Origin: Rozella allomycis CSF55
Taxonomy: Eukaryota
Direction of reading: 5' to 3'
NCBI GenBank assembly: GCA_000442015.1
Contig: KE561117.1
Span: 186,001-217,887 of the forward strand
Length of the DNA: 31,887 nt
Shown: one piece after another, positions 2,479-31,887 of the stretch
How positions within the stretch are numbered: position 1 is the first letter of the stretch
Layout: each line of letters opens with the position of its first letter
Made by a program: the position numbers and the translations under genes
Notes under the pieces: model-generated
Database searches by the model: none
Told to the model about the DNA's origin: nothing
The model's input: the letters and a program-made list of their open reading frames with translations, nothing else

Positions 2479-3009
2479 TTATTTTTCATTTTTTGATATA
2501 AAAGGCGGAAACATGGTCAACTTTACATTAATCCCTTCTCTGGATATTCTTCTTTCGCATGACATGATATAGAAATCTCTAAGATCGTGAGCATCAACAT
2601 CATCCATCGATTTTGGCATTTTGTTCCAATCAATATTCGCTCTTTCCAATGTAGCTATAATACCTCCAATTCCTACTTTATACATTTTCGAATCTTCGGA
2701 TAATAATCTGCCTTTGATATTGTCACCAGGTTTCAATCCAAGTAGAAATCGAACAGTTTCATTCTGTCTTACTTGTTTGTTCACATTTTCAAATGGTGTA
2801 TATCTGAATTCTGTATCGATATTTCCTGTAAGAATAACGTGGTTCTGGGCCAATTCATCAATTGGCAATTCTCGTTTGAGCCCGAAATTTTTGCCTTCAA
2901 ACATGGCGTTTCTAGAGTTCCTAATCAGCAAATTCTTATCTTTAACATAATTACAAACAAAGGCCGAACGACTGAATAACTGGCGAAAGGATTGATATCT
3001 TTTGTCCAT
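2479..3009 (-). CDS. Hypothetical 176-aa protein, intronless orphan
   Basis: ATG-initiated ORF filling the space up to the ADK stop; no recognisable domain. Its C-terminus weakly resembles the repeat unit of the neighbouring ORF. Confidence 0.6.
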   Translation of the reverse strand: MDKRYQSFRQLFSRSAFVCNYVKDKNLLIRNSRNAMFEGKNFGLKRELPIDELAQNHVILTGNIDTEFRYTPFENVNKQVRQNETVRFLLGLKPGDNIKGRLLSEDSKMYKVGIGGIIATLERANIDWNKMPKSMDDVDAHDLRDFYIMSCERRISREGINVKLTMFPPFISKNEK

Positions 3010-3128
3010 TACAATTTTGAATTTTCGTTATCCATTAATTCGGGTTGCAAGCATCAAATTATCAAATAATAACATAGTAAAAACATCAAAAAATAGACCA
3101 TTTATTGGACCAATTTGCCAATTCTCTC

Positions 3129-3938
3129 CTAGAGAGCTTGGATTTTTTTTCTTAAAAGACTTAGATCTATCGTTTCCTGTGCAACAATTGGCCTCTCCTT
3201 TTTAACACCATTTTTATAATTATCGCTGACGCTTGGATCAGCCAGGTCTTTATCCATCTTTTTAAGATGCCAACTATTGTATTCTATTCTCTTTGTCATC
3301 TCCTCTAAGTATGGCTTAATATCGTCTGCTTTAAGTCTTAAAGTAAGAGCGGAATTGTAAACGTTTCGGGCCCTTTCAACATTCCCCTCGTAATCGTGCT
3401 TGTCCAAAGGTTTGGATTCCCTCTCAATAAAATTCTTGTATTCGTTTCTCAAATCCGCTTGATCTTTGGGTGTTAGCTCATTGAAAGATTTTGCCATGTA
3501 TCTATTCTTAATAGTTGTCATAACGTCACCCTTTCTTCTATAACTGGGAATCAAATCCAATTTTGCATAATCAGTTGGTAAACGTTTAAGCTTGTTTTGA
3601 GTGTCGTATAATTTAAGCAATGTGTGCAGGACATACTCGCGCTGTGCTTTATACTCGGTCGCCAGTCTTCGAAACTCAAAATCTGACATACCCTTCAATT
3701 TCCTAGGTTCGGGAGGGTACATTTTCAAATGATCTCTTTTGTCAATAATTGTTTGAATTTGATCAATTATAGGCTGAACATCTGATTTTATCATTCTCAA
3801 TTTGCGGGCTGATGAATAGATATTTGCAATTTCTTCCACTTTTCCAACACTAATTTCATCAATTTTGTAATTATTTAAAAACTTCTTATAATCACGGAAA
3901 ACCTCAATTTTGTCATCAGGACTTAACCGGTCAGGGGA
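3129..3938 (-). CDS. C-terminal part of an orphan helical protein with an internal 150-aa repeat; 5' end lost at the N join
   Basis: 810 nt of open frame from N3939 to the TAG at 3129. Two alignable units: LSPDD..YKKFL..GKVE..NIYSSARKLR..DVQP..HLKM and LTPKD..YKNFI..GNVE..NVYNSALTLR..DIKP..HLKKM. Confidence 0.7.
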   Translation of the reverse strand, partial: SPDRLSPDDKIEVFRDYKKFLNNYKIDEISVGKVEEIANIYSSARKLRMIKSDVQPIIDQIQTIIDKRDHLKMYPPEPRKLKGMSDFEFRRLATEYKAQREYVLHTLLKLYDTQNKLKRLPTDYAKLDLIPSYRRKGDVMTTIKNRYMAKSFNELTPKDQADLRNEYKNFIERESKPLDKHDYEGNVERARNVYNSALTLRLKADDIKPYLEEMTKRIEYNSWHLKKMDKDLADPSVSDNYKNGVKKERPIVAQETIDLSLLRKKIQAL

Positions 3939-3939
3939 N

Positions 3940-4085
3940 CGTAATTCCAAGGGTTCAATATTGTCTGCAATTCTCTCGATAATTTCAACTGGTAAGTCAA
4001 AGAGACTCAAAGAGCAGGACCAGGAAAGCCAAACGGAGATCATAAGGAGCAACTCAATGCACTTGTTGGATGTCAACATTTCCAT
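3940..4085 (-). CDS. Signal peptide + F-box-like protein, copy 1 (N-terminus only, cut by the N join)
   Basis: MLTSNKCIELLLMISVWLSWSCS (basic n-region, hydrophobic core, S-x-S) followed by LSLFDLPVEIIERIADNIEPLEL. Close nucleotide paralogue of 7517-7717. Confidence 0.65.
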
Positions 4086-4507
4086 CGTTTGCGGTGGCTT
4101 GTAACGATTATTTCGTAGATTTCCTAAGTTGATGGACCCTCATTAAAACATGATTGGAATTTTGTAATTAACATGGAAATCTTCCGTAAGATGCTCATGG
4201 TCCCATGGATTAAAACCACCTCGGACCCATCAATTTATTGTGTATGATGATTAAATTCTTAGAAAATCAACCCATGGAAAAGATTAAGAGATGTCAGGAG
4301 CCTCCTATTCAATACTGAATAATTAATGGCTTTATTTCACTCGTGACTCGGATCTAGAAATGGATCCCTAAATTCCAAAAAGCAAAAAATTGCCATTAGG
4401 CAAGTACCGTAAACCATGCATAAATAAGGGCGGCCCAATGTGAAGTTTTGAACTGTCAATTAAGCCTATATCGATAGTCTACTTAGTTTCGTAATTGTAT
4501 AAACATA

Positions 4508-5100
4508 TTTTTTTTAGAAAAAAACGATTTATTTGCTTTATACAAGGCGACGAAGGATCATAACCGCTGTAATCTTGTTCGCTACAAAAGATATTTTCGT
4601 GATGAAACGATTAAGTATTATTTTTCCCTCAACACCTTCAACTAAATAGACAGGCAGTTCATCCGGTTTTTCGTAAAAACTTCAACAAGATATTGTCAAT
4701 TCCACCAGTCTCCATACAAAATGGTTCAAAAAAGAGGCATTGTGATTGACAAAGGTTCATATATTTCTTCATTTTCAAATCTCTAGAGTTTTCGGCTGCA
4801 GCCAAAGGATTAATAGATGCATTTTCTAACATTGAACTGGCAGAGGGTGACATTCATTCAAAGGCGCATATTATTATTATATCCTTTGTCTGCATGTGCA
4901 CACCATTCACCCGATTCCAGGAGGTAGTTTTATCTGCAGTGATGTCAACTGATAGTTGAAAGATATTAAAATAAAAAGGACAAGGAAGACAAGAAAAAGG
5001 ACATCAGAAGTATTTGCCTATATTTGCCTATTTGGATTCTTCGGCGGAAGGTTCATTACAGTAAGGGACGGTTTCATGATGCTCCGTCTCTGCTTTAACC
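4508..5100 (-). mobile_element. Decayed 3' end of an RLE-type (CRE/NeSL-like) non-LTR retrotransposon
   Basis: SPSASS..AAAENSRDLKMKKY..L....FEPFCMETGG matches the restriction-like endonuclease region. After a frameshift it reads ...ILNRFITKISFVANKITAVMILRRLV* (stop 4538-4540), then AATAAA (4528-4533) and an A8 tract (4508-4515). The 5' boundary is approximate. Confidence 0.7.
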
Positions 5101-5342
5101 CTTGTAAGACAGGGGCAATTTAATAAATTTCCTGGTTATTTTAAGAAATTTGTCTTTGCTTTCTAGCGGACCAAAATCACCTCCGCTACAAAGCGGGATA
5201 CAAGGCTCAGTGTTTCATTATTGACATTTGACACTGACAGGAAGAATTTATTAATCGTGATAGTTGATTGTATCAGGACGAAATATGCATTTATCCGGGC
5301 AGCCCGATCCAATTTTTTTGAATATTAAAAATTAAAGCGATT

Positions 5343-6958
5343 TTATTCGTTTTTTGGCATGTTTTTTAATTTACTCATTAAAAACTGATAGAATGAAATG
5401 AATGCCCCGATAGCGCATGAAGCTTGAAAAGTTTCCAAACTGGCAGATCCGAAATAAGAGGTTAAAGCATTATTTGATTTAGCGATGCCAATAAAGTATT
5501 TGGTTACGTGGAATATTACCATGCTAGCCTTTTCCTTTTCTACGTTAAAAAGAATGGACAAGAAGAGTGGAAGAATGTTCAACCAAATCAGCCAAGGGAG
5601 AATACGATTGAACTCGAGCAACATAAAAAGTTCATACGCCTGTATCATTACCGTTATAGCAATGGCATTCAAATAATTCGATTGAAATGATTTTAGCTGC
5701 CTTTTCACTTTTTCGATTCTTGTTTCTGTTTCTAACGTATCAATGTCACAATCATCCGGATGATTATTTTTGTCTTCAATTAAAGACTCCATTTTATTAT
5801 CCTCCTGCTCACATATTTCAGCGCACTTTGAAACACCAGACTCTTTATTTACCTTATCAGTTTCTTTTATGAATTTAGAACAATTATTTCTTTCATTTAA
5901 AGGATCAGTTTTTAGTCTGCGATAAATCTCACGCAACTTACTTGCGACATTGTGTATGGAAGCCAGCTCGCTATCAGATCTTGAAATGATGTGTTCCGCT
6001 GTGTTTATTAATGACTTAATGGTCTTATCCATGCAAAACTGCTGCTTTTCAAGTGCCACATTAAATTCCGGTAATCTGAAAACATGTTTCCACAACGTAA
6101 AATATGCTTCATTCTTGAGCCTTAGAGTTAGATCCAAAAAAACTTCAATCAAATAGTGTTTCAAATAGAACGCTGCTATCAGAAGGAAACTCTCTTTGTG
6201 TTTCAATTCACAAAACATGGAGCATTTCAAAACACCTTCTTCAATGTCTTTTTTAAGATCGATTGAACCATTATTGGGGCTTTTTACAAATAAGAAATGT
6301 TTCAGAGTTTTAGGACTTGTAGCACAAAATTCCGATAGATTAAATCCATAACCTGCGTCTGCAAACAAAATGCAATGACTAAATATTTCCGGCCTGTCAT
6401 AATGAAAAGCGTATTGTGGTATAAGAACACCATTGATAATTCTGCGAACAAAGTCATTGTCTTTGTCTTCGATAATTTCAATATTTTTCCAAGGGACATT
6501 TTGATCCACACAGCTTTTGAATCTTGCAATATCAGATAATGACGGAATTCCATGTTCAACATCTTCATAGTCTGAAAATGCGTGACAAAATGGATCTGGC
6601 TTGTATTTTCCAGCTAACAATTTTGCTTCGTGAAAGAAAAGAGCATCTAAAAAAAGTCTGTTTATAAAACGCTCACCAATAGCCCCAAAAAGTATATTAT
6701 CTGCGTCGTATTTCAAGATATATTCTATTAAATTGCCTTCCGAGAAAATAAATATGTCAGCGACAATTTCAAAGACAGTTGCGCTATTCGCCTTAAATAT
6801 TGATTTTAACATGTCCATTTTGAACGAATCTTTGATATACGTTACTATTTTTTGGAAGGCGGCATCAGGATTATCAACCAATTCGTCAAATTCTTCTTTG
6901 TTGTCCAAAAGTTTGGGAAGGATACTGTATTCTAGAATTTCCTTGACATGTGTGCTTC
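5343..6958 (-). CDS. Large intronless orphan protein with C-terminal hydrophobic helices; 5' end lost at the N join
   Basis: About 1.6 kb of uninterrupted frame: helical body, acidic linker, then hydrophobic segments (YLNAIAITVMIQAYELFMLL, ILPWLIWLNILPLFLSILF, AIGAFISFYQFLM). Confidence 0.75.
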
Positions 6959-6959
6959 N

Positions 6960-7377
6960 GCGCCTCTCCATGAGCACTTCGCAAAGCATTAGGTGCTTGT
7001 TGTCGAGTTGCATGTTCATAGATAGGCGGCGATCTACGATCTATGGTTGTGTATCTAGGAAGTGTGTCACCTTGTCTTTGTACTTGTTGTCGGGTAGCCT
7101 GTTCATAGGAAGGTAGTGATCCTTGGTCTTGGGCTCTGGAAGTGTACCTGGAAGAGGCAGAACGATGGCGTCCTTGTTGGCCTTGTCTTGAGGGGTTTGA
7201 AGACCGAGTGTTACTTCCTGATGAAGTATTCTTCTTTTTTCCTTTGAAAAAGTTCTTGAACGATTTCCAAGGTGATATTCGAGACCGATTGATTGCTTGA
7301 GAATTGACCGTTCCAGCGGGGGAAGTTGCTATCAATGATAGAAATAGAGGTAAAAGTAATGTCGAAAGTAGTTTCAT
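6960..7377 (-). CDS. Secreted disordered Q/R/S-rich protein with three PY (L/PPxY) motifs; 3' end lost at the N join
   Basis: Classic signal peptide MKLLSTLLLPLFLSLIATSP, basic patch KGKKK, and LPSY (88-91), LPRY (106-109), PPIY (117-120). Confidence 0.75.
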
Positions 7378-7390
7378 GACGACCCCTTAN

Positions 7391-7655
7391 AATTATTGAT
7401 TTTCCATTTCAGTTCGATCAAAGGCACAGATCGCTCAAAATATTTTATTAAGGAGGGTAATATCGCATCCTTCTGATACCAAGCATGTGCCGTTTTGCAT
7501 GAACAAACCATTTGCTGTAATTCCAAGGGTTCAATATTGTCTGTAATTCTCTCGATAATCTCAACTGGTAAATCAAAGAGACTCAAAGAGCAGGACCATG
7601 CAAACCAAACGGAGATCATAAGGAACAACTCAATACACTTGTTAGATGTAAACAT
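7391..7655 (-). CDS. Signal peptide + F-box-like protein, copy 2 (N-terminus only, cut by the N join)
   Basis: MFTSNKCIELFLMISVWFAWSCS followed by LSLFDLPVEIIERITDNIEPLELQQMVCSCKTAHAW, fitting the F-box consensus L.dLP.Ei...I...L....l......CK...W. Confidence 0.7.
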
Positions 7656-7729
7656 TTGCAACGTTTCTTCGGTGGCTTGTGACGGATTTTTCGTAGATTT
7701 CCTAAGTTGAAGGACCCCATCATAAGATT

Positions 7730-8354
7730 ATCGGACGGGGAGTTTACGACCCGGACTTCAGAAACGATTATTGGCATGTTGAGTTAACACCATTTTCACC
7801 TCGAATACACACTCACTTTAAGGGATTTACATCGCTGACCAGGGGGGTTGTCGAGTGGTGTGTGTGTGTGTGTATGTGTAGGTGGCGGAAGTTTTGGAAG
7901 GTGCATGTTGGATTGCTCATTAATATGGCACATTTGTGTCTATTTATAAAAAAATTAAATTGAAATAATAAATTGTTGTTTTATTTTCTTTATTAGCGTC
8001 TTAGAGCCATAAGATTTCCTTGTTACACTTAGTTTTGAGTCCCCCTAACCCCTTGGAGTAGCAAATCTTTAAAAGTATCCAATCGATTAAACAATTATAT
8101 TAATTGAAAGATAAAATTTATAGACATTTATTTATTAGAACAAGATAAAGGGATTTGGGATTCGCGGGAGGAAAACGGTAAATGAAGGTCATGAGCGATG
8201 GAAGAAAGCGGTAAAATGAAATACATCTCTACTTAATTTTAGAAGAAATCACAATTTCCATGGCATCTTCAAACTAATGTCAAAAAATGATAATGATAGC
8301 AAACAGTTGTTTTGTGCGAGAAATTTATTCTTAATTATAAACTCCCCGTCCGAT
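7730..8354. mobile_element. Non-autonomous DNA transposon (MITE-like), 625 bp with perfect 17-bp terminal inverted repeats
   Basis: ATCGGACGGGGAGTTTA (7730-7746) is the exact reverse complement of TAAACTCCCCGTCCGAT (8338-8354). No internal ORF is listed. A second copy of the left end sits at 31851-31887. Confidence 0.85.
7858..7880. repeat. (GT)n microsatellite inside the TIR element
   Basis: gtgtgtgtgtgtgtgtatgtgta read directly. Confidence 0.85.
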
Positions 8355-8650
8355 TTAACGAGCACTGCGAGACTTGTAAGCTAATTGTAAGGATAGCTTT
8401 ACATAAACACTTAACTCTATATTTTTGGTCATTGGAACCACGTTACCACTGAGGCTTCCTATACATCAGTAAGACTCCCACCACAGGCCCAATCTTCGCC
8501 AAAATCCAAATAAGAATATTGAATTTTATTGGTTTGCTTTTCTATACTCCTTATTTGTGGCGATCCATATTCCAGATTACACATGAATGAGCCAGGTTTA
8601 TCATACTAGTATCTTGATTATAAATAAATGCATTTATTATCATAATGAAA

Positions 8651-9362
8651 TCATTCATCTAGGTATCTATCTATGGCACTTTCGTAATCTAAAATAGACT
8701 GAAGGTACGCATCATTGAATTTCTATATAAGCATACTATTGTTTATACTTTTTTTTCTGCAGATGCAATAGCACTCATCTCACCGATTGTAAGACCTTTC
8801 GGAAACTTACTCATCGCCAAAGAAAAATAGAAAAGTGTTGACTTTGGCGGGGTTGGTAATTCCTTGCCATATAGGACAGCTTTTTGCGCGGTTTCCAAAG
8901 GAACTTTTCTTTTAGATAGTATTAAGTTTAGTATAAAGGATGCTTTTTTGGTGTTTGCAGATCTTTGGCATCGATCCTTGTAGCACCTCATTTCATAACG
9001 CCTTTGTTCTTGCATCAACTCCATTCTCTTTTGATAATTCTTTTACTATTTTTGCGTTAATTTTACCTCTTTTTCTAAAGCATTCATTTCTTTCCACTTT
9101 TGGCATGCCTTTTTAAATCTACTTGTTTGATTTTCTTCTAATGCCTCATTGTTAAGGAAATCACGCAAGAAAATTCCCATTTGATGTGTATGGCGCTTTG
9201 GAAACTGAAAATACTTTATTAAATATTCGTAGGCTATTGACTAATACCAATTCCATTACTGTACTTATTAAAATTTGGCACATCAATATTAGAGTTATCT
9301 ACACAAGTAATAGTATATTTTTTAGGCGAAAGAAGTACGTAACATTTTCTAAAAGGTTGCAT
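8651..9362 (-). CDS. HMG-box protein, Abf2/TFAM-like, paralogue B (4 exons)
   Basis: MQPFRKCYVLLSPKKYTITC..VPNFNKY|TYEYLIKYFQFPKRHTHQMGIFLRDF..ACQKWKEMNALEKE|NYQKR..LPTPPKSTLFYF..|KFNDAYLQSILDYESAIDRYLDE*. Introns of 26, 27 and 24 nt; second HMG box degenerate. Confidence 0.75.
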
Positions 9363-9477: not shown

Positions 9478-10214
9478 TTATTCATTCGTTTTCAAATGCT
9501 CCTCCATGGCATGTTGATAATCAGATATTGACTTTGCATATTCCCCAGCAAATTCCTACATGTGAACAAATATAGACCCCTTATACCTCTTTTTTTCCGG
9601 ATATCATTTTGCTAACTTCGGCAAAATTTTTAGGTTCAAAAACAAACTTCTTATGCATAGAAAATGTGTATGAATGCAGGTTAGATTTAGGGGGCACTGG
9701 AAGTTCTTTGCCATATTTAACAGCTAATTTTGCATCTTCGGGTGAAACTTTGGCATTTTTAACCAACATATTGAAAATGAATGATGCTTTCTTTGCGTTC
9801 GAAGTCTCCTCACATCGAATTTTATATTGCTCCATGTCATGTTCTCTTTTTTCCTTGAAGCGTTCCAGAATATCTTGATATTTCATTTCATTGAAAATTA
9901 TGAACTTACTTTCTTTTCTTCGGCATTCATTGTCTTCCATGTTGCATGAGCCAATTTTAATAGTTCTTGAGGTGATACTTTTTCTTCGCTTTGTTTTGTT
10001 TTGGCTTCTTCAAAAAAATCTTTAATAAAGAAGTTAACTGCAGACGTTGAGCGCTGTGGGTATCCAAAATAATTCTTTAAGAAATCGTAACCTTTCTTAA
10101 GTAGAAACTCCATTTACTGAAGGTATTAAAATTAGGTATTATTTTTTCGGTGTTATTAGTGCATACTATGGTATACTTTTTAGAGAGTATAGGTGATCTA
10201 GCAAACGAAAACAT
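9478..10214 (-). CDS. HMG-box protein, Abf2/TFAM-like, paralogue A (4 exons)
   Basis: MFSFARSPILSKKY (mitochondrial-presequence-like)..IPNFNTF|SYDFLKNYFGYPQRSTSAVNFFIKD..AHATWKTMNAEEKK|KYQD..LPVPPKSNLHSY..|EFAGEYAKSISDYQHAMEEHLKTNE*. Same intron positions as paralogue B. Confidence 0.75.
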
Positions 10215-10637: not shown

Positions 10638-12424
10638 ATGAATTTGGAAAATGTCGCAGACTCTTTAAAGAATGGTAAACAATAACAACTTCGAAGTATT
10701 TAGAAAGCATAAGAAAAGGATTTCAATTACATTATCCTGATCTATTGTCTTTGTTGCAAACTAATCTCCACCTGGTGGCGTTTGATGAAAACGAATTAGT
10801 AAACACATTGAGGTGTGTTGCAAATGTCTGCTTTGAAAATAGTGACACCTATCGAATTTTGTTATATAGACGAAAATAGACAATATTTTAATAATGTATC
10901 AGCTGATATACTGCGCATACTCGATTTAGCAATGGACAATAAATTGAGCAGTCGTCTTTTTAAATTTATATACGGCGCCATAGTAAATCACACTATGGAT
11001 AACGGTAACAATTGTTATTAGATTTTGATTAGAAATCAGTCTGAATGGATATGTGCATGGCAATGTCGTGGAGAAGATTCTCGAAGCGTGTGTTACAAGA
11101 ATCAAAAACACTGAAGATGTCTTCATATTAATTCAATTGATTCAATACTTTGTTGAAAGTTCTGAATTTGCAGTCAAGAGAATTAAATGTACTGACTTGA
11201 TGGCGAATATACTGCGTATACTTGTTGCACACCAGAATAATGATGAAATTTTGGATGAAATACATAGTATAGTTATGATTTCCTTGACGGGAGGTAAAAT
11301 TTTATGTATTATGCAATGGAAGATTTGAAAGTCATTGATTTTTCTCAAAGTAACTTGGCAATAAAACTAGAAAGTATAAACTTTCAAAATGAAACCGTGT
11401 GCGAAATAATATCGTATTTTACAATGATTGGTAATCTATTATTTCNGGCAGTCAAGAGAATTAAATGTACTGACACGATGGCAAATTTATTACGTATACT
11501 TGTAGCACACCAGAATAATGATGAAATTTTGGATGAAATACATAGTATAGTTATGATTTCCTTGACGGGTGGTAATATTTTATGTATTATACAATGGAAG
11601 ATTTGAAAGGCATTGATTTTTCTCAAAGTAACTTGGCAATTAAACTAGAAAGTATAAACATTCAAAATGAAATCGTGTGCGAAATAATATCGTATTTTAC
11701 AATGATTGGTAATCTATTATTTCTCACTTTAATTGGATTCTTTTGCTTCTTTGTTGTTTCCAGATCAAATTTTAAGAATTTTGGACACTATTGACTCAAA
11801 TGAAACTCTAACATCGATTCATTACGTTATTTTGACGAATACAATTAGAAATGCAGAGATAGCTTCATTTATTTATAACAATGGAAAGTTACAGACTTCT
11901 CTGTTGAATGCTATGAAAACTACAAGTTCTAATACAAAGCTAAAGTACAACGCACTTGGCCTGCTACGAAACATTTCTATCTCTGGTAAATTTTAACTTT
12001 ATTTATAATTAGAAAAGAGACAAGTGATCAAGAATCCTGAATTAATGGATTGCTTGATTGAATTTTATGATGAAGTTCGGGAGAGGGGGATAGTTGATGG
12101 TCTATTAGGGCAAATTCTATTGCTATTAGTCTCCTTGAGTTCTGATTCAGGTAAACTAAATTAAATGAAGTTATAGAATGCCTTGTGGTATTAAAGGAGA
12201 GATTCGTGTCGCAAGTCAGAATAGCAGGTATTCTTGAACATTGTTCAAAAGAAGACCAAGGAGTATCCAAAATAGCGGCCAGACTAGCCATAAAACTATA
12301 TCCAATCCTTGACGAAAAATTTCAACTGTCCGTTGTTGAGTTGTGCAAAGAATTGATAAAAGGGGAATCCAACCAGGTTATAAAAGAGGAAGCTATTAAT
12401 ATTTTGAAGGGCGCAGAAAAATAA
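10638..12424 (+). CDS. Armadillo-repeat protein, SmgGDS/RAP1GDS1 (Bem4/darlin)-like, multi-exon; a false internal duplication spans N11446
   Basis: Exon motifs DENRQYF, YGAIVNHTMDN and KYNALGLLRNISIS resemble SmgGDS ARM repeats; several short GT-AG introns. Not all junctions were resolved. Confidence 0.6.
11170..11723 (+). repeat. Tandem near-identical 276-bp duplication flanking an N (probably two alleles)
   Basis: 11170-11445 repeats at 11448-11723 (period 278) with scattered substitutions, joined at N11446. Confidence 0.9.
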
Positions 12425-12518
12425 ACATTACTAAATTACAATATGATGGGCGGTTATTTTTGGCAATTTAGTTTTCGGTATTTTCATTGCTCTAATTCTG
12501 AAATTTCGCAAACTAACA

Positions 12519-15474
12519 ATGCAAGAAAAGGACAAGTCGTATGACTATTGTCCACCTTTTGCTAACGGCAATAGGTTTAACCAAAGCTATTCAAACAAGA
12601 ACGAGTATTCTGGACGGCCTTATAGTGGAGGGTATAACTCTAGCGGCGGAGGACAGGGTCAAAGTGGGTATTATGATAGTGATACTGCGCGTTCTAAATA
12701 TTCTAGTGAATATTACAGAAGAGATAGCCGGCCGTACCCCGTGCAGAGGTATGATAAGGGGTATTCACGTGGGTATGAGGACGGATACGCAAGAGATTAT
12801 CGTGGTCATAAGAGTGAAGAGAGTTCAGGCTATGATTATGGAAAGAGGCAGCCGTATTATGAAGATGGATACAAGTACCAGAGCAGGCCACGGCCATACT
12901 ATCCTAGCGAGAGGATTAGCGATAGACCGAATGAGAGGGGCTATTATGATTATACCAAGAAGTATAAATATGATGAGCGATACAAGTATGATAATAGGTT
13001 TGAAGATAAAAGCGAAAGGTAAACACTAAATATTTTTTGAAATGTAGGAAATCTGTGGAGCCATATTATAAGCCGTATGATAGAGGATACGAGAAGCCGT
13101 ATTATGAAAGGTCATACGATAAACCATATGATAAGCCATATGAAAGACCGTATGAAAAGCAATATGATAAGCCATATGCAAGATCATTTGAAAATACATA
13201 TGACAGTGGTGAAAAGCCGTTTGTTAAAAAGTATAAATATGATAATTTCAAGAGCTACGAATATAAGAATGATGACAGGGGGATAAATTATTATAAGAAA
13301 CCATATTATAAAGAAAAGAGTTATGAGAATTATGAAAAACCTGCCTATAGATATGAAAATGATGAAAGAGAGTATGATGAAAGAGATGAAGAACAGTATC
13401 AAGGGGACAATGAAAAGATGAATGATGATAATGGAATAAAGGAGGAGTCTAAAATGGAAGAAGGCGAGTGTTTATCGTCAGAACCAAAAGATGATGATTT
13501 AAAAGAAGATTTGAAAGACGATATGAAAGAAGATTTGAAAGAGCAAGAGGAAAGGATGGAAGTAAATTTTGATAAAGGGAAAGAAAAAGAAGAAGAAGAA
13601 AGTATTGGTAAGAGCGGAGAGAAGATTGAAATTGTCGACAAGGAAAAGATTCAAAGTTCAGAAGAGATATTGAAGAGGATGGATGAAATTGATGTGCAGG
13701 TTTGTGAGTTGGAAAAGAGAATACAAATATTGAAAGGGGAAATGAATGATTTTGATTCAAATTTTTTGGTTGAAAGTATTTTGAATTCAAATAAGAAAAT
13801 ATCTAAAAGTATAAAAGAAGAAAATGAGAAAGAGTTCCCAACGTTGATAAATTTTGAAGAATATTCGCAGCCTGTAATTGAGAAATTTCAGAATCAAACT
13901 AAAGATCTTTTGATGAGAGTTATAAAGCGAAGAAAGCAACAAACATTTGAACTGAAGAAACAATTGAAAGTGAAATATAAAAATATTCAAAATGAATTTC
14001 AATCTAAACTTTTAGAAAATTCTAGTTTGTTTAATACTTCATATGATAAACTTATGGGAATTAAAAATGGATTTATTCATTCAAAGATTAAAGTTGATAA
14101 TTTTATATCACAGAATCAATCTTCTAAAGATATTCAATTAATGTTTGTTAGAACAATTGCTAAAATACCAAACATGTTATTAGATGGATGTGAAAAAGCT
14201 TTCCCCTTTATATCTGAAAATGGACTTGTTTCTGATCCAATGAATGTTTATCAACAATCTAAATATATAAACCCCTGGTCTGATGATGAAAAAGATAAAT
14301 TTGTTTCTGCGTTTCTTGAGTATCCTAAAAACTTTTCTAAAATTGCATCTTTCATTGAAAATAAATCTTCATCTGATTGTGTTAAATTTTATTATCTCAA
14401 TAAAAAATCTTTGGATCTGAAAAAATTATCAAAAAAGAAATTTCGTAAGATTGGACCAGGGTCTTCAAGAGAATTAAAAGATTTAACTTTGGCTAATCTA
14501 CATTGGGAGCAAAGAGAACATCGAGAAAAATCAAAAGAAAAAGAAATAAAAACTCCAATTAAATCAAATTCCAAAGAAATAAATACCAAAGATACTCCAA
14601 GTGAACCAAGTACACCAATAGAGAATAATACAAACACAGCATCTAGATGGACTGTAATGGAAAAAGTTAAAGCGATTGAAGGAATTCGATTTCATGGGAA
14701 AAATTTTCAAAAGATATCTGAATACGTTGGAACTAAAACTGAACAACAATGTAGATCTTTTTATCAAAATTACAAAAAGAAATTAGATTTAGATACAATA
14801 ATTAAAAACAATGAAAAAATTATTCCAAAAGTTGAAACTCCTTCTGACTTATCTTTTGAAAAAGTAAATGAAAGAAAACAAATCCCTTCAACTTCAATTC
14901 CAAGGCCTTTGACTCAAACTTCTTTTGTTCCTTCGTCTGCTTCTTATCTTCAACAACCTTTGGGCTATCCAATGCCTTTTCTTTATTATCCAAACTCTTT
15001 TCAATTTAGATTCCCTCCAATGAGACCCCCTTTCTTTGAATCAAACTTTAATCGTCCTATTCAACAACAAACAAGAAGACACAGGTAATGTAAATGTAGT
15101 TTAAATATTCTAGTATTACTTCAGATATTGTTTCAAATTCATTCAACAAAGAAAGAAGATCTAGCGGTGGCTCCATCGATCATTCCAGAATTCTTGATGA
15201 TTCAAAATTACAACTTAAAGACGATAAAGTGAAATTAAAACTTCAAGATGAATTTAAAAAGGAAGAAACAGTTTTAACTCACAATGATTCAAAGTTACAG
15301 TTAATAGATCAACAACCCATGGTATCATTAGACCCTCATAATGCCATTGACACAAATATCAACAATCAGTCAGAAACTTTTATCCCTCAAGAACAATCAA
15401 CTGTACCAGAAAATATTCAAACATCTGAAACATCTGATGAAACAAGCAAGAATGATGAAACTCAAAATTTATAA
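12519..15474 (+). CDS. Dual SANT-domain corepressor protein (Snt1/NCoR-like), 3 exons
   Basis: SANT1 PWSDDEKDKFVSAFLEYPKNFSKIASFIENKSSSDCVKFYYLNKK and SANT2 SRWTVMEK..HGKNFQKISEYVGTKTEQQCRSFY. Preceded by AKIPNML..ENGLVSDP and a coiled coil EEILKRMDEIDVQVCELE. Introns at 13019-13047 and 15085-15113. Confidence 0.88.
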
Positions 15475-26940: not shown

Positions 26941-28304
26941 TTACAAATTGTTATACGTCCTTCCGGTTATGCCAATCATAATACATAACGCTAAAACAAC
27001 AATGGTATTGAAAATGCCTGTTGCAATTATAAATTTAATTGATTTTTTGCTGACTTTTTCTTTTTCCGCTACCTTGTTTATCTCATCTGTGCTCAATATT
27101 ATGTGTTCATGCTGTTGGCCAACGTTTTTCTCACAAAGTATGACAAAGATGAATCCTGAAAAAGTACTCAAACCAACCAAGATAATGGAAATCAAAGATA
27201 ATGTCATGTATTGAATTATAGCCAGTATTATGGAGACAAACGCTAGTAAAACACAAAGTCTACCAGCAAACCAATGCAATTTATCGTCAAACCAATGTGG
27301 AGGTTTACCTTCAAACCATTTGTAATTTGAATAGAAACCCAACAAAATTTCAAGTGCTATTAGTGAAATTGTAGTAATTCCAAAATAGCTATGGTAATTC
27401 CCGACAAACGTCCACCCGGTTTCTTAAACAAGTGTAAATATTAGAATACCTGAAAATATAAGGCATAAAGAAACACCACACAAAAAAGCTGCCATCAATT
27501 GAATATTCCTATGAATTCCATACCAATTCTTGATGTAAGACTTTGAATAGCGCGCCAAGAATATCGAGTTGGGTATTAATATTAGCCTAATGTATTCTTT
27601 GAAGATGATTGTTTTTACCATGATATTATCATGAGAACGGCATGTGCGGATGCGACTTGTGAAAATGGCAAGTAAGATAGGTCTTGTAAGTTTTGCGGTG
27701 TAATAGCAAGAGAATCTACATTTTGACTATGTGCAATACTCTCTGTTAAACTTTCAGAGGGCTTCCTCTTCTGGGACATTTGAGTTTCGTCATAATCTAC
27801 TATTAATTCAATGACACCTCTTTTTGGACCATGATATGAAAGTTGCATACCAGGTCCCTTGGCATAAATTATGTAAATCTTAGAACTTGGAACTATCGCA
27901 ACATTTAGTCCGTTTCCTGAGGCCAATGATCTGGAAAAATTGAAAGATACTTTGTTTTCATTTGAAGAATACTGAAAAGTCTACTATTGCCATCAGTGAA
28001 ATAATACTTCAATTATTGTTGAGCTCTCACTAGGACGAGAAAATGGAATTCCCGTATATGTTTTCAATATTCCAGAATTCAATATTGCCATATCAGCACC
28101 TCCCATTTTCCCGTTTTTTGATATCCCAAATCCGACCCATTCGGATTTAGGATTAGTAGATTTGGCTGATATCTCAAAATCGATAGTAGTGTTTTTGAGC
28201 CTGTAATTAAATGTCCATTGTCTATCAGCGGTAGTGAGCAATTTTGCAAATGCGCAAGGAATTGTGAGGCAGAGCAATAACCATTTCGCTTGATTTGTCT
28301 TCAT
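26941..28304 (-). CDS. DOMON + cytochrome b561 protein (ferric-chelate reductase-like), paralogue 1
   Basis: Signal peptide; DOMON WVGFGIS..GKMGGADM and SYHG; b561 histidines in AHAVLM, IHRNIQ, YHS and LHWF. Confidence 0.85.
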
Positions 28305-28429
28305 TAATATTTAATTTCCGTTTGGATAGTCAATTTATATCTATTGGTGATGGTGATGACAAAATATTCTTATTGCTGATGCAATTAGAGATCAAATATA
28401 AACAATAACCGGTGTAATTAATTATTTAT

Positions 28430-29647
28430 TTAGGAAACCACTTTTTGGCTTACACCTGTAAAAATACATAGCATAAAAAAGGAGACTGCAACCAAAAGAA
28501 TCATCAATGCTAAAAAATAAGCAAATCTCTTAGGGAAAATCGGTCTTTTCTGGAACTCGGTGCTTTGATTGAATTCATGTTCATGCTGTTGGCCTAAATA
28601 TTTTTCAAGAATAAAGACGATCCCAGAAACACCAACTAAATATGTGAGTATACATATTAATAGAACAATTTTCAGATCAAGAAATTGAATAAAAGCCAAT
28701 CCAATCGTTGATATTGCTAATATATAGCATGTTCTTCCCAAATACCAATGCATTTTATCATGAATGAAGTGTGGTGGTTTTCCTTCTCGCCACTTAAAAT
28801 TGGAATATAGCCCGGTCATTGGGACGATGAGAACAAGCGCCAGAGTTGTCATTCCCGCGATGCTGTGATATGTAGGTACAAATGACCATTGAAAATCAAA
28901 ATAATCATGCAATTAATGTATTACCCGACAGAATGACTAAAACAGATGCTAAAGCAATGACCACTGTAAAAAATTGAATATTTCGATGAACAATATACCA
29001 ATTTGGAATTAATCTTTTAAGATATCTAGCTAATAAAATAGCTGTAGGTGTTAAGAAAAGCCATCCGAATAACATTAGTATACCGTGGAGAACCGAAAAT
29101 AAAGACAATTTGTGTTTCACAATGTTGCCTATGGCGTTAGTATCACCACCTAAAGATGCAGGAATAACGCCTCTTGCCTCGCGCCCATGATATCCCCAAT
29201 TGCCTGATGGTCCGTAAGCATAAAGCATTAAAAGATCCTTTCCTTCTTTTATTTGCACGTTAAAGTCCGGGTTTGTAAAGGGTCGGGCAAATTGAAATTC
29301 GATTGTTCCCTCGGTTAATTCCTCTCATTATTACTAGATATATATACCAGTATCTTTATATTTTCTAATTTCGCGCTCGACTCTTGGGGTCGAGCCCGCT
29401 CAATGCCAATGAATGAATTCAAAACTCCGTCACGAACAACGACCATATCTGCGCCTTTCATTTTCCCGTCCGTGCTCAATCCAAAACCTATCCATTCGTC
29501 TTTAGCCGATGAAACTTTAATGTTAAATGATATTCTATTATCCGTTGTAGCATAATTGATCTTGAACTTTCCATCAGGTGATGAAACAAAATAGTCCTTA
29601 GCGTGTGCAAGTGAGAAAATTGATAAAATTATGTGACGCTTGTACAT
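28430..29647 (-). CDS. DOMON + cytochrome b561 protein, paralogue 2
   Basis: Signal peptide; WIGFGLS..GKMKGADM and GYHG; histidines in LHGILM, VHRNIQ, YHS and MHWY; shares GQQHEH with paralogue 1. Confidence 0.85.
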
Positions 29648-29750
29648 GAGAATAGTTTGCTTTATCCAAATTTAATGCTTTATGAAAGCATATAGTGAAT
29701 TTGAATATTTCCGTTTTGGAATGCCATCAAGCAAAAGTCAAAAATCGGAA

Positions 29751-31850: not shown

Positions 31851-31887
31851 ATTATCGGACGGGGAGTTTACGACCCGGACTTCAGAA
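31851..31887. mobile_element. Left end of a second copy of the TIR element, running off the window end
   Basis: 37 nt identical to 7727-7763 (attatcggacggggagtttacgacccggacttcagaa). Confidence 0.85.

Follow-up and report, generated by a model that had tools for sequence, protein, structure and literature searches.

We analysed a window of 31,887 nucleotides (nt) from Rozella allomycis CSF55 (contig KE561117.1 of assembly GCA_000442015.1, positions 186,001 to 217,887 of the forward strand; coordinates below are those of the window), in which an earlier note had read the block at 2479-8354 as an effector island aimed at host ubiquitin ligases. Rozella is an obligate endoparasite of the water mould Allomyces and the earliest-branching, still phagotrophic relative of microsporidia. 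The block contains two tandem paralogues that probably encode F-box proteins, a gene whose product carries [LP]PxY motifs (the PY gene) and an Mrp51-like gene. The firm results of this work are a corrected map of these genes and the finding that a public gene model of the locus is a chimera of three of them. The effector island itself is a plausible and testable lead rather than a demonstrated one, and has less support than first assumed. To host-directed ubiquitin-ligase mimicry by these proteins we give a probability of roughly 0.35.

Assembly joins and the corrected gene map

In the scaffold as read, every long open reading frame (ORF) within 2479-7655 lies on the minus strand and is unspliced, in agreement with the intronless, same-strand block described in the earlier note. 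The ORFs encode 176 amino acids (aa; 2479-3009), 318 aa (3129-4085), 558 aa (5343-7019), 163 aa (6886-7377) and 93 aa (7374-7655), and the 318-aa product is 97-100% identical to R. allomycis CSF55 proteins. Single N letters stand at 3939, 6959, 7390 and 11446; the first three, which had already been taken for assembly joins, fall inside 3.5 kb. We compared the window with three Rozella proteins from a second, independent assembly of the same strain (P0002, P0003 and P0004), with the public 461-aa model O9G_000871 (P0001), which UniRef lists as 'F-box domain-containing protein', and with read contigs from the sequencing runs X1, X2 and X5, of which X5 is a single-cell run.

A duplicate of 200 nt links the 318-aa and 93-aa ORFs. 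Positions 3941-4139 and 7517-7717 are 90-92% identical and comprise about 55 nt of upstream sequence plus the first 46-48 codons of each ORF, encoding a hydrophobic N-terminus and the first half of an F-box. The left edge of the duplicate (3941) lies two bases from the N at 3939. The second-assembly proteins continue differently from the window at these points. P0003 (543 aa, partial) starts exactly as the head of the 318-aa ORF, with a 100% identical N-terminus, and then runs through a complete F-box and a 34-residue linker into a body that shares 65% of its residues with the 558-aa ORF. The partial P0004 (473 aa) matches the body of the 558-aa ORF without a difference, and its upstream part resembles P0003, unlike the coding sequence to the right of the N at 6959. 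In P0002 (427 aa), a head rich in PY motifs (PPSY, PPGY and LPGY) leads into a body almost the same as residues 50-318 of the 318-aa ORF; the protein ends at the stop codon at 3129, without the Mrp51-like part. On exact look-up all three proteins were singleton clusters, and the 176-aa ORF had no entry as such in the same look-up.

Read contigs bridge the PY gene. A 1776-nt contig of X2 (record 11) reads through 3151-3938, 101 other letters and 6960-7389, and then continues into 457 off-window letters that do not match 7391 onwards. The same length for the missing piece is obtained from X1, where records 3 and 7 supply 83 letters past 3938 and 48 letters before 6960 with a 30-letter overlap (83 + 48 - 30 = 101). 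From the start at 7377 to 6960 there are 418 nt, and 418 + 101 = 519 nt, or 173 codons; since 3938 opens a codon of the body, the reading frame of the PY gene is kept across the bridge. On the F-box side, records 17 and 18 of X5 overlap and together cover 3940-5604, and record 17 carries 41 further letters past 3940 that are absent from the window. These two records tie the 3' end of one F-box gene (paralogue 2), the spacer and the head of the other (paralogue 1) together, showing that the two are tandem paralogues. We also considered whether the two head copies are alleles of one locus, which is unlikely given this linkage in X5, although contigs of X1 and X2 connect the upstream sequence of both heads with position 8377.

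Taken together, the read contigs and the second-assembly proteins indicate that all three Ns are false joins or hidden gaps. At 3939, the rest of F-box paralogue 1 and the head of the PY gene belong in the gap; at 6959, a fragment with the PY head was joined to the body of F-box paralogue 2; and at 7390, the head of F-box paralogue 2 was joined to that same PY fragment. In the 318-aa ORF, 48 codons that belong to F-box paralogue 1 thus run into the PY gene's body. The 93-aa ORF encodes the head of F-box paralogue 2 and the 558-aa ORF (5343-6956) its body, and the 163-aa ORF supplies the head for the PY body at 3129-3938. In the public model O9G_000871, the F-box paralogue 1 head is fused to the body of the PY gene and, via a predicted intron, to the Mrp51-like ORF. 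We are highly confident that the order on the minus strand, 5' to 3', is a miniature inverted-repeat transposable element (MITE), F-box paralogue 2, spacer, F-box paralogue 1, PY gene and Mrp51-like gene. The pieces are linked in one locus. The earlier note had counted two genes with a signal peptide and an F-box; two tandem F-box paralogues with hydrophobic N-termini do exist, but the gene models as then read were fragments and chimeras of the N joins.

A further N lies outside the block. At 11170-11723, two 276-nt copies that are 95% identical stand head to tail with the N at 11446 exactly between them, and a peptide is repeated in the ORFs on either flank. Rather than a true tandem duplication, the copies appear to be overlapping ends of two contigs, or two haplotypes, placed in series, and they show that single Ns in this scaffold mark unreliable joins.

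Features of the F-box paralogues and the PY gene

F-box paralogue 2 is represented in the window by a conserved upstream stretch (7656-7717) and an 88-codon head, together 7392-7717 on the minus strand, with a hydrophobic N-terminus and a complete F-box-like domain, and by a body of 537 codons plus stop (5343-6956, minus). About 34 codons between 7392 and 6956 are missing from the window, where P0003 has 34 residues, and the full-length protein would have about 660 aa. Of F-box paralogue 1, the window holds only 3940-4139 (minus), made up of the conserved upstream stretch 4086-4139 and the first 48 codons (4085-3940). The spacer between the paralogues (4140-5342) has no ORF longer than 69 aa and contains a dispersed repeat at about 5042-5275.

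In both heads, residues 8-26 form a hydrophobic stretch with a Kyte-Doolittle value of 1.64-1.67 over 19 residues. It is preceded by Lys and followed by S-C-S-L-S, and the next 15 residues are net acidic. The F-box begins (L-P-x-E-I-I) two residues past the stretch, and only the 93-aa copy has its second half. The two head copies differ at 9 of 46 codons (5 non-synonymous and 4 synonymous differences). Three of the five replacements are Leu to Phe inside the hydrophobic stretch, which thus stays hydrophobic. The body, of about 540 aa, is helical. It has a Cys-containing acidic stretch and, towards the C-terminus, two neighbouring hydrophobic helices (body residues 429-449 and 451-473) and a hydrophobic tail. 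The presence of these membrane helices contradicts the picture of simple soluble secreted F-box proteins.

Divergence between the paralogues forms a mosaic. Compared with P0003, 79 of the 88 head residues are identical, the first 90 residues of the body are 73-83% identical and the last 150 residues 77-90% identical, while the 180-aa centre (P0003 residues 215-394) falls to 30-53%. Relatives were found only in Rozella. In word-seeded searches, which also covered the PY protein, 3 of 1352, 3 of 7856 and 2 of 3076 candidates were relatives, all from Rozella and none from outside it, and a HMMER profile search of 1.84 billion representatives, with a 473-position profile that did not include the F-box head, returned two matches, both from Rozella. 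The ESM Atlas gave no usable match for the body as represented by P0004, and an AlphaFold2 (AF2) model of P0003 from a 4-row alignment reached a predicted local distance difference test score (pLDDT) of 31.7, too poor for a fold search.

We consider it probable that the F-box identification is real. The Pfam model PF00646 aligned to the 93-aa head over profile positions 1-32 of 43 with an E-value (E) of 0.015 and 15.7 bits, and to P0003 with an E of 0.051 and 14.0 bits; both scores lie below the cut-off of 20.5. For residues 24-120 of P0003, the top feature match in the ESM Atlas was an F-box cluster (0.92, with 133 shared features), a figure to be read against the 4-10 of 100 shuffled proteins that also reach 0.9. 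In the Atlas structure search with the same residues, all 10 rows listed were clusters with F-box families, at template modelling (TM) scores of 0.42-0.63. By eye, the spacing L-P-x-E-I-I-x-x-I ... L ... V-C-x-C-K ... W also fits the F-box consensus, with the Trp shifted by three residues.

The whole PY gene encodes about 442 aa and is assembled from the head (7377-6960), the 101 missing nt and the body (3938-3129). The head lies on a misplaced 430-nt contig (6960-7389, minus) that holds the first 139 codons from the start at 7377; the encoded N-terminus is signal-like, and a conserved basic patch as well as LPSY, LPRY and PPIY motifs follow. The body (3129-3938, minus) comprises 269 codons plus stop and is near-identical to residues 159-427 of P0002. 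At the N-terminus, the hydrophobic stretch (Kyte-Doolittle value KD11, 2.68) is preceded by M-K and followed by T-S-P-A-G. The description of a signal-peptide protein with three L/PPxY motifs was therefore right about the signal-like N-terminus and the motifs, but the 163-aa ORF on which it was based is only the head of this longer gene.

The PY motifs are commoner than composition predicts. The mature part of the head in the window contains three [LP]PxY motifs, a count reached by 0 of 100000 shuffles, and the head of P0002 also contains three, reached by 3 of 100000. The two heads are only weakly alignable (local score 138 over about 96 residues with gaps); despite this divergence, two PY cores and the basic patch stay aligned between them. 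The body carries an internal duplication of about 75 aa, which scores 90 against 32 +/- 5.8 for shuffled sequences, and was predicted to be all-helical in an AF2 model from a single sequence (pLDDT 53.9, too poor for a fold search). Pfam gave no match on the PY proteins, and a word-seeded search found no relatives of the family outside Rozella.

Two side observations concern the PY gene. The X1 contig with the PY head has a depth of 128.8, compared with 226-306 in neighbouring single-copy contigs; together with the very different PY head that the second assembly carries on its near-identical body, this may mean that the head is present as two divergent alleles, for which contig depth is weak evidence. 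At 3045-3128, the DNA contigs of both X1 and X2 include a form that skips 84 bases between the PY stop and the Mrp51-like start; either an indel variant or a k-mer artefact at homopolymers may account for it.

Possible roles in host or parasite ubiquitination

F-boxes dock Skp1, and Skp1 and the Rsp5/Nedd4 partners of PY motifs are cytosolic. Under host-directed mimicry, the F-box proteins would enter the secretory pathway via a short N-terminal signal sequence ending two residues before the F-box, and cleavage would leave the F-box as a free N-terminus on the exoplasmic side. The C-terminal hydrophobic helices could then hold the proteins in the parasite surface or in an interface membrane. 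There, the F-box would dock host Skp1, imitating a substrate receptor of the host Skp1-Cullin-F-box (SCF) ligase, and the variable central 180 aa might pick the targets. Provided that the N-terminus of the PY protein is also cleaved, the [LP]PxY motifs of this protein, known as ligands of Rsp5/Nedd4 WW domains (described in part of PMC7401822), would be presented to host Rsp5-type ligases.

Signal peptides were judged by eye, from charge and Kyte-Doolittle windows only, with the classical pattern of a positive n-region, a hydrophobic core of 7-15 residues and small residues at -3 and -1 in view. By the charge-difference rule, a Lys before and acidic residues after a hydrophobic segment place its C-terminal side outside. 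In the F-box proteins, the position of the hydrophobic stretch at residues 8-26, the preceding Lys, the small residues and the acidic segment fit either a cleaved signal or an N-in orientation, with the F-box outside either way. If the anchor stayed uncleaved, its distance of two residues from the F-box would leave little room for Skp1/Cul1 docking and hinder SCF assembly. Host-directed mimicry is further favoured by the restriction of the relatives to Rozella, the mosaic divergence, the diverged PY head in which two motifs and the basic patch keep their alignment, the position of the cluster next to a MITE and the unwalled growth inside host cytoplasm. The earlier note had supposed an intracellular parasite, and Rozella is indeed obligate intracellular and wall-less. 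Its protoplast lies without a wall inside a compartment in the cytoplasm of the host and phagocytoses that cytoplasm, according to a passage in PMC6317583.

Several results weigh against this reading. The F-box match stays under the Pfam gathering score; phmmer of the F-box head against the PDB gave 0 matches at E up to 10, and a 543-position profile that included the P0003 body found no F-box chain there, only one irrelevant designed-protein match (E 2). The F-box N-terminus is of borderline hydrophobicity and contains a Glu, and the C-terminal membrane helices fit a topology that is no less simple, a cytosolic body with a membrane anchor. The strongly basic segment after the hydrophobic stretch of the PY protein favours a cytosolic PY part, and the P0002 model begins past the hydrophobic stretch, without a signal. 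Rozella also has an RSP5 gene of its own (one, compared with three in Allomyces, as given in Table 1 of PMC5913265). Because the parasite sits in a membrane-bounded compartment (the same passage of PMC6317583), a host-derived membrane would still separate a secreted protein from cytosolic Skp1 or Rsp5. The family is tiny, with two paralogues and one PY gene and no expanded effector family, and restriction to Rozella is weak evidence because there are no close sequenced relatives. A more specific form of host-directed mimicry, which we think quite unlikely, is that host Skp1-Cul1 is recruited to membrane-anchored F-box proteins on the naked host-facing surface or in the host-derived membrane, leading to ubiquitination of host proteins at this interface, and that host Rsp5 is engaged or titrated by a co-located, secreted PY protein.

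F-box proteins with such a role are known from other pathogens. Legionella AnkB, Agrobacterium VirF, Ralstonia GALA and poxvirus PRANC proteins bring a pathogen F-box into the host cytosol, where it redirects SCF, and Ank proteins of Orientia reportedly bind SCF1. These bacterial and viral mimics differ from the Rozella proteins in being injected or expressed inside the host cell, whereas the Rozella proteins would need a secretory route and a step across the host-derived membrane. Among eukaryotes, the SSGP71 F-box-LRR (leucine-rich repeat) effectors of the Hessian fly combine a signal peptide with an F-box that binds wheat Skp1-like proteins, mimicking a host E3 ubiquitin-ligase receptor (as reported in a portion of PMC7330099). 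They resemble the Rozella genes in joining a signal peptide and an F-box in a eukaryotic parasite protein. As far as that portion describes them, they are unlike in having an LRR target-binding part and in being soluble, salivary and members of a large family; the Rozella proteins have a helical body and a membrane anchor, and their Skp1 binding is only predicted. Closer in lineage is NemLGF2 of the microsporidian Nematocida displodere, in which a signal peptide, or else a transmembrane segment at the N-terminus, precedes a RING domain and for which a role in host ubiquitination has been proposed (excerpts of bioRxiv 10.1101/047720). Like the Rozella genes, it is lineage-specific, belongs to an intracellular parasite from the sister lineage of Rozella and places an N-terminal signal or transmembrane segment before a ubiquitin-ligase module. 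In those excerpts the module is a RING and the family exceeds 10% of genes; Rozella has an F-box, two paralogues and C-terminal membrane helices, and there is no sequence similarity.

The same features could instead belong to membrane-anchored ubiquitination adaptors of the parasite itself, an explanation that we consider only slightly less probable than host-directed mimicry. The PY protein would then be single-pass with its N-terminus outside, its cytosolic PY motifs recruiting Rozella Rsp5 to membrane cargo, and the F-box proteins would be Rozella SCF receptors with a cytosolic F-box and body anchored by the C-terminal helices. Since F-box and WW ligands act in the cytosol, no extra transport step would be needed. 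Rcr1/Rcr2, Comm and PRRG4 are small type-I membrane PY proteins that act as Rsp5/Nedd4 adaptors (from the part of PMC7401822 cited above). In their build, a single membrane segment lies near the N-terminus and [LP]PxY motifs come after it, as in the Rozella PY protein with its N-terminal hydrophobic segment, conserved basic patch and PY motifs. The single RSP5 of Rozella (same table of PMC5913265), the C-terminal hydrophobic helices of the F-box proteins and the P0002 model without a hydrophobic N-terminus are all consistent with such adaptors. However, there is no sequence similarity to a known adaptor family, and Pfam was blank on the PY proteins; compared with the adaptors as described in that part of PMC7401822, the Rozella protein is long (about 442 aa), has a duplicated helical body and carries an extreme N-terminal, cleavable-looking segment. 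From the charge balance, with Lys in front of the N-terminal segment of the F-box proteins and net acidic residues behind it, translocation of the F-box side is expected, and an uncleaved anchor would again lie two residues from the F-box. The hypervariable centre of the F-box proteins and the hypervariable PY head would also be unusual for housekeeping adaptors.

We consider it unlikely that the motifs are fortuitous or vestigial, carried by fast-evolving, Rozella-specific helical membrane or coiled-coil proteins unrelated to ubiquitin ligases. The 'F-box' would then be a chance helix-turn-helix likeness, as its sub-threshold Pfam scores and the lack of any F-box chain in the PDB by phmmer or profile search might suggest, and the [LP]PxY motifs would be part of a lineage-specific P/Y/T-rich repeat. 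The PY motifs do lie within longer repeated units (P.YTTIDR), which could be conserved for another reason; in addition, both AF2 models are of low confidence, and shuffled proteins sometimes reach an Atlas score of 0.9, at the rate given above. Against this stand three lines for the F-box (Pfam positions 1-32, Atlas features and Atlas structure neighbours), the shuffle counts for both PY heads (0 and 3 of 100000), the two PY cores that stay aligned amid diverged surroundings and the fact that adjacent genes carry two different ligase-docking modules. It is very unlikely that the genes are decaying, unexpressed duplicates in a repeat-rich, poorly assembled region: three N joins fall inside 3.5 kb, a MITE and another dispersed repeat adjoin the genes and two of three second-assembly models are partial, but the window has unbroken frames of 537, 269, 139 and 88 codons, their counterparts in the independent assembly are unbroken too, the read-contig bridge keeps the PY gene in frame and the replacements in the hydrophobic head are conservative.

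Surroundings of the locus and significance

The last gene of the block, the ORF at 2479-3009 (minus, 176 aa), is a separate gene and likely encodes a mitochondrial ribosomal protein of the Mrp51 family, judging from its match to PF11709 (E 1.6e-5, 25.2 bits against a cut-off of 27.1). The same PF11709 match is found at residues 321-364 of P0001. The block had been described as made of orphan genes; this is borne out for the F-box and PY families, which are restricted to Rozella, but not for this ORF.

At the other end, 7730-8354 is a MITE-like element, a high-copy dispersed repeat of the kind of non-autonomous DNA transposons. The element (625 nt) is non-coding, has no ORF longer than 85 aa, contains an internal GT microsatellite and ends in 17-nt inverted repeats that are 100% complementary. 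Transposon remnants had been noted in the block, whose end coordinate, 8354, proved to be the terminus of this element. Summed contig depth was 18000-110000 in four bins spanning 7616-8551, compared with about 220-310 in single-copy bins; these sums add all contigs and are not copy numbers. A third terminus, at 31855, matches the left end of 7730-8354 for at least 33 nt inward and then runs off the window (31887). ATTA precedes both copies. With flanks of ATTA| and |TTTAA, no clean target-site duplication can be assigned. Short length, lack of coding capacity, perfect 17-nt inverted termini, many copies and the start of a second copy within the window are all as in other MITEs.

Contigs in two runs join the upstream stretches of the F-box genes to position 8377, from 4151 in X1 (13 letters between) and from 7717 in X2 (25 letters). 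They skip the MITE and 22 more bases and could represent an empty-site allele or a flank common to both paralogues. In the spacer, 5042-5275 is a second dispersed repeat, with summed depths of about 4181 (X1) and 3370 (X2) compared with about 220-310, and it has several alternative flanks in the single-cell run.

The intron-rich housekeeping genes said to flank the block were recovered to its left, namely a WD40 protein gene (369-1191, intron-bearing, over at least three frames) and a PfkB-family kinase gene (1470-2469, intron-bearing, over two frames). The RNA run X14 gave one contig, 90-95% alike, on 2317-2359; it touches the kinase gene only and is uninformative on expression of the cluster. 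To the right of the locus lie genes for HMG-box, Myb/SANT, TPT transporter, methyltransferase, phosphatase, ABC transporter and DOMON/cytochrome b561 proteins. Guanine plus cytosine (GC) content is even along the window, at about 0.31-0.41.

Among these neighbours, the ORFs at 8743-9042 and 9581-10009 (both minus) have a conserved peptide block in common and resemble tandem paralogues, with no family match. Just upstream of the second, the ORF at 9898-10113 (minus) encodes an HMG-box (PF09011, E 3.3e-6). At 12447-15088 (plus), a long low-complexity region rich in Tyr, Lys, Pro and Asp, with short KPY repeats, leads into a protein with a pair of Myb/SANT domains (PF00249, E 1.4e-22), and the GC skew of this region is strongly positive, up to 0.48. 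At 26941-29671 (minus), two tandem paralogous genes each combine a signal-like N-terminus, DOMON and cytochrome b561 and have introns, and a 41-nt stretch is common to 27104 and 28578.

Comparative or secretome analyses that use the present annotation inherit its errors, as O9G_000871 is a three-gene fusion and the scaffold holds at least three false joins. A literature search turned up no publication that connects Rozella with F-box proteins or effectors, although supplementary secretome tables, which lay outside the search, might list these genes. If the proteins face the host, the locus would provide a small and directly testable set of effector candidates, whose predicted partners, Skp1 and Rsp5, occur in the host as well as the parasite. 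F-box mimics encoded by parasites and candidate effectors of the ubiquitin system are a known kind; host-directed mimicry in Rozella, if true, would be, as far as the literature search shows, the first proposed for Cryptomycota, a two-pronged toolkit against host E3 ligases in which the variable centre of the F-box proteins would track host targets.

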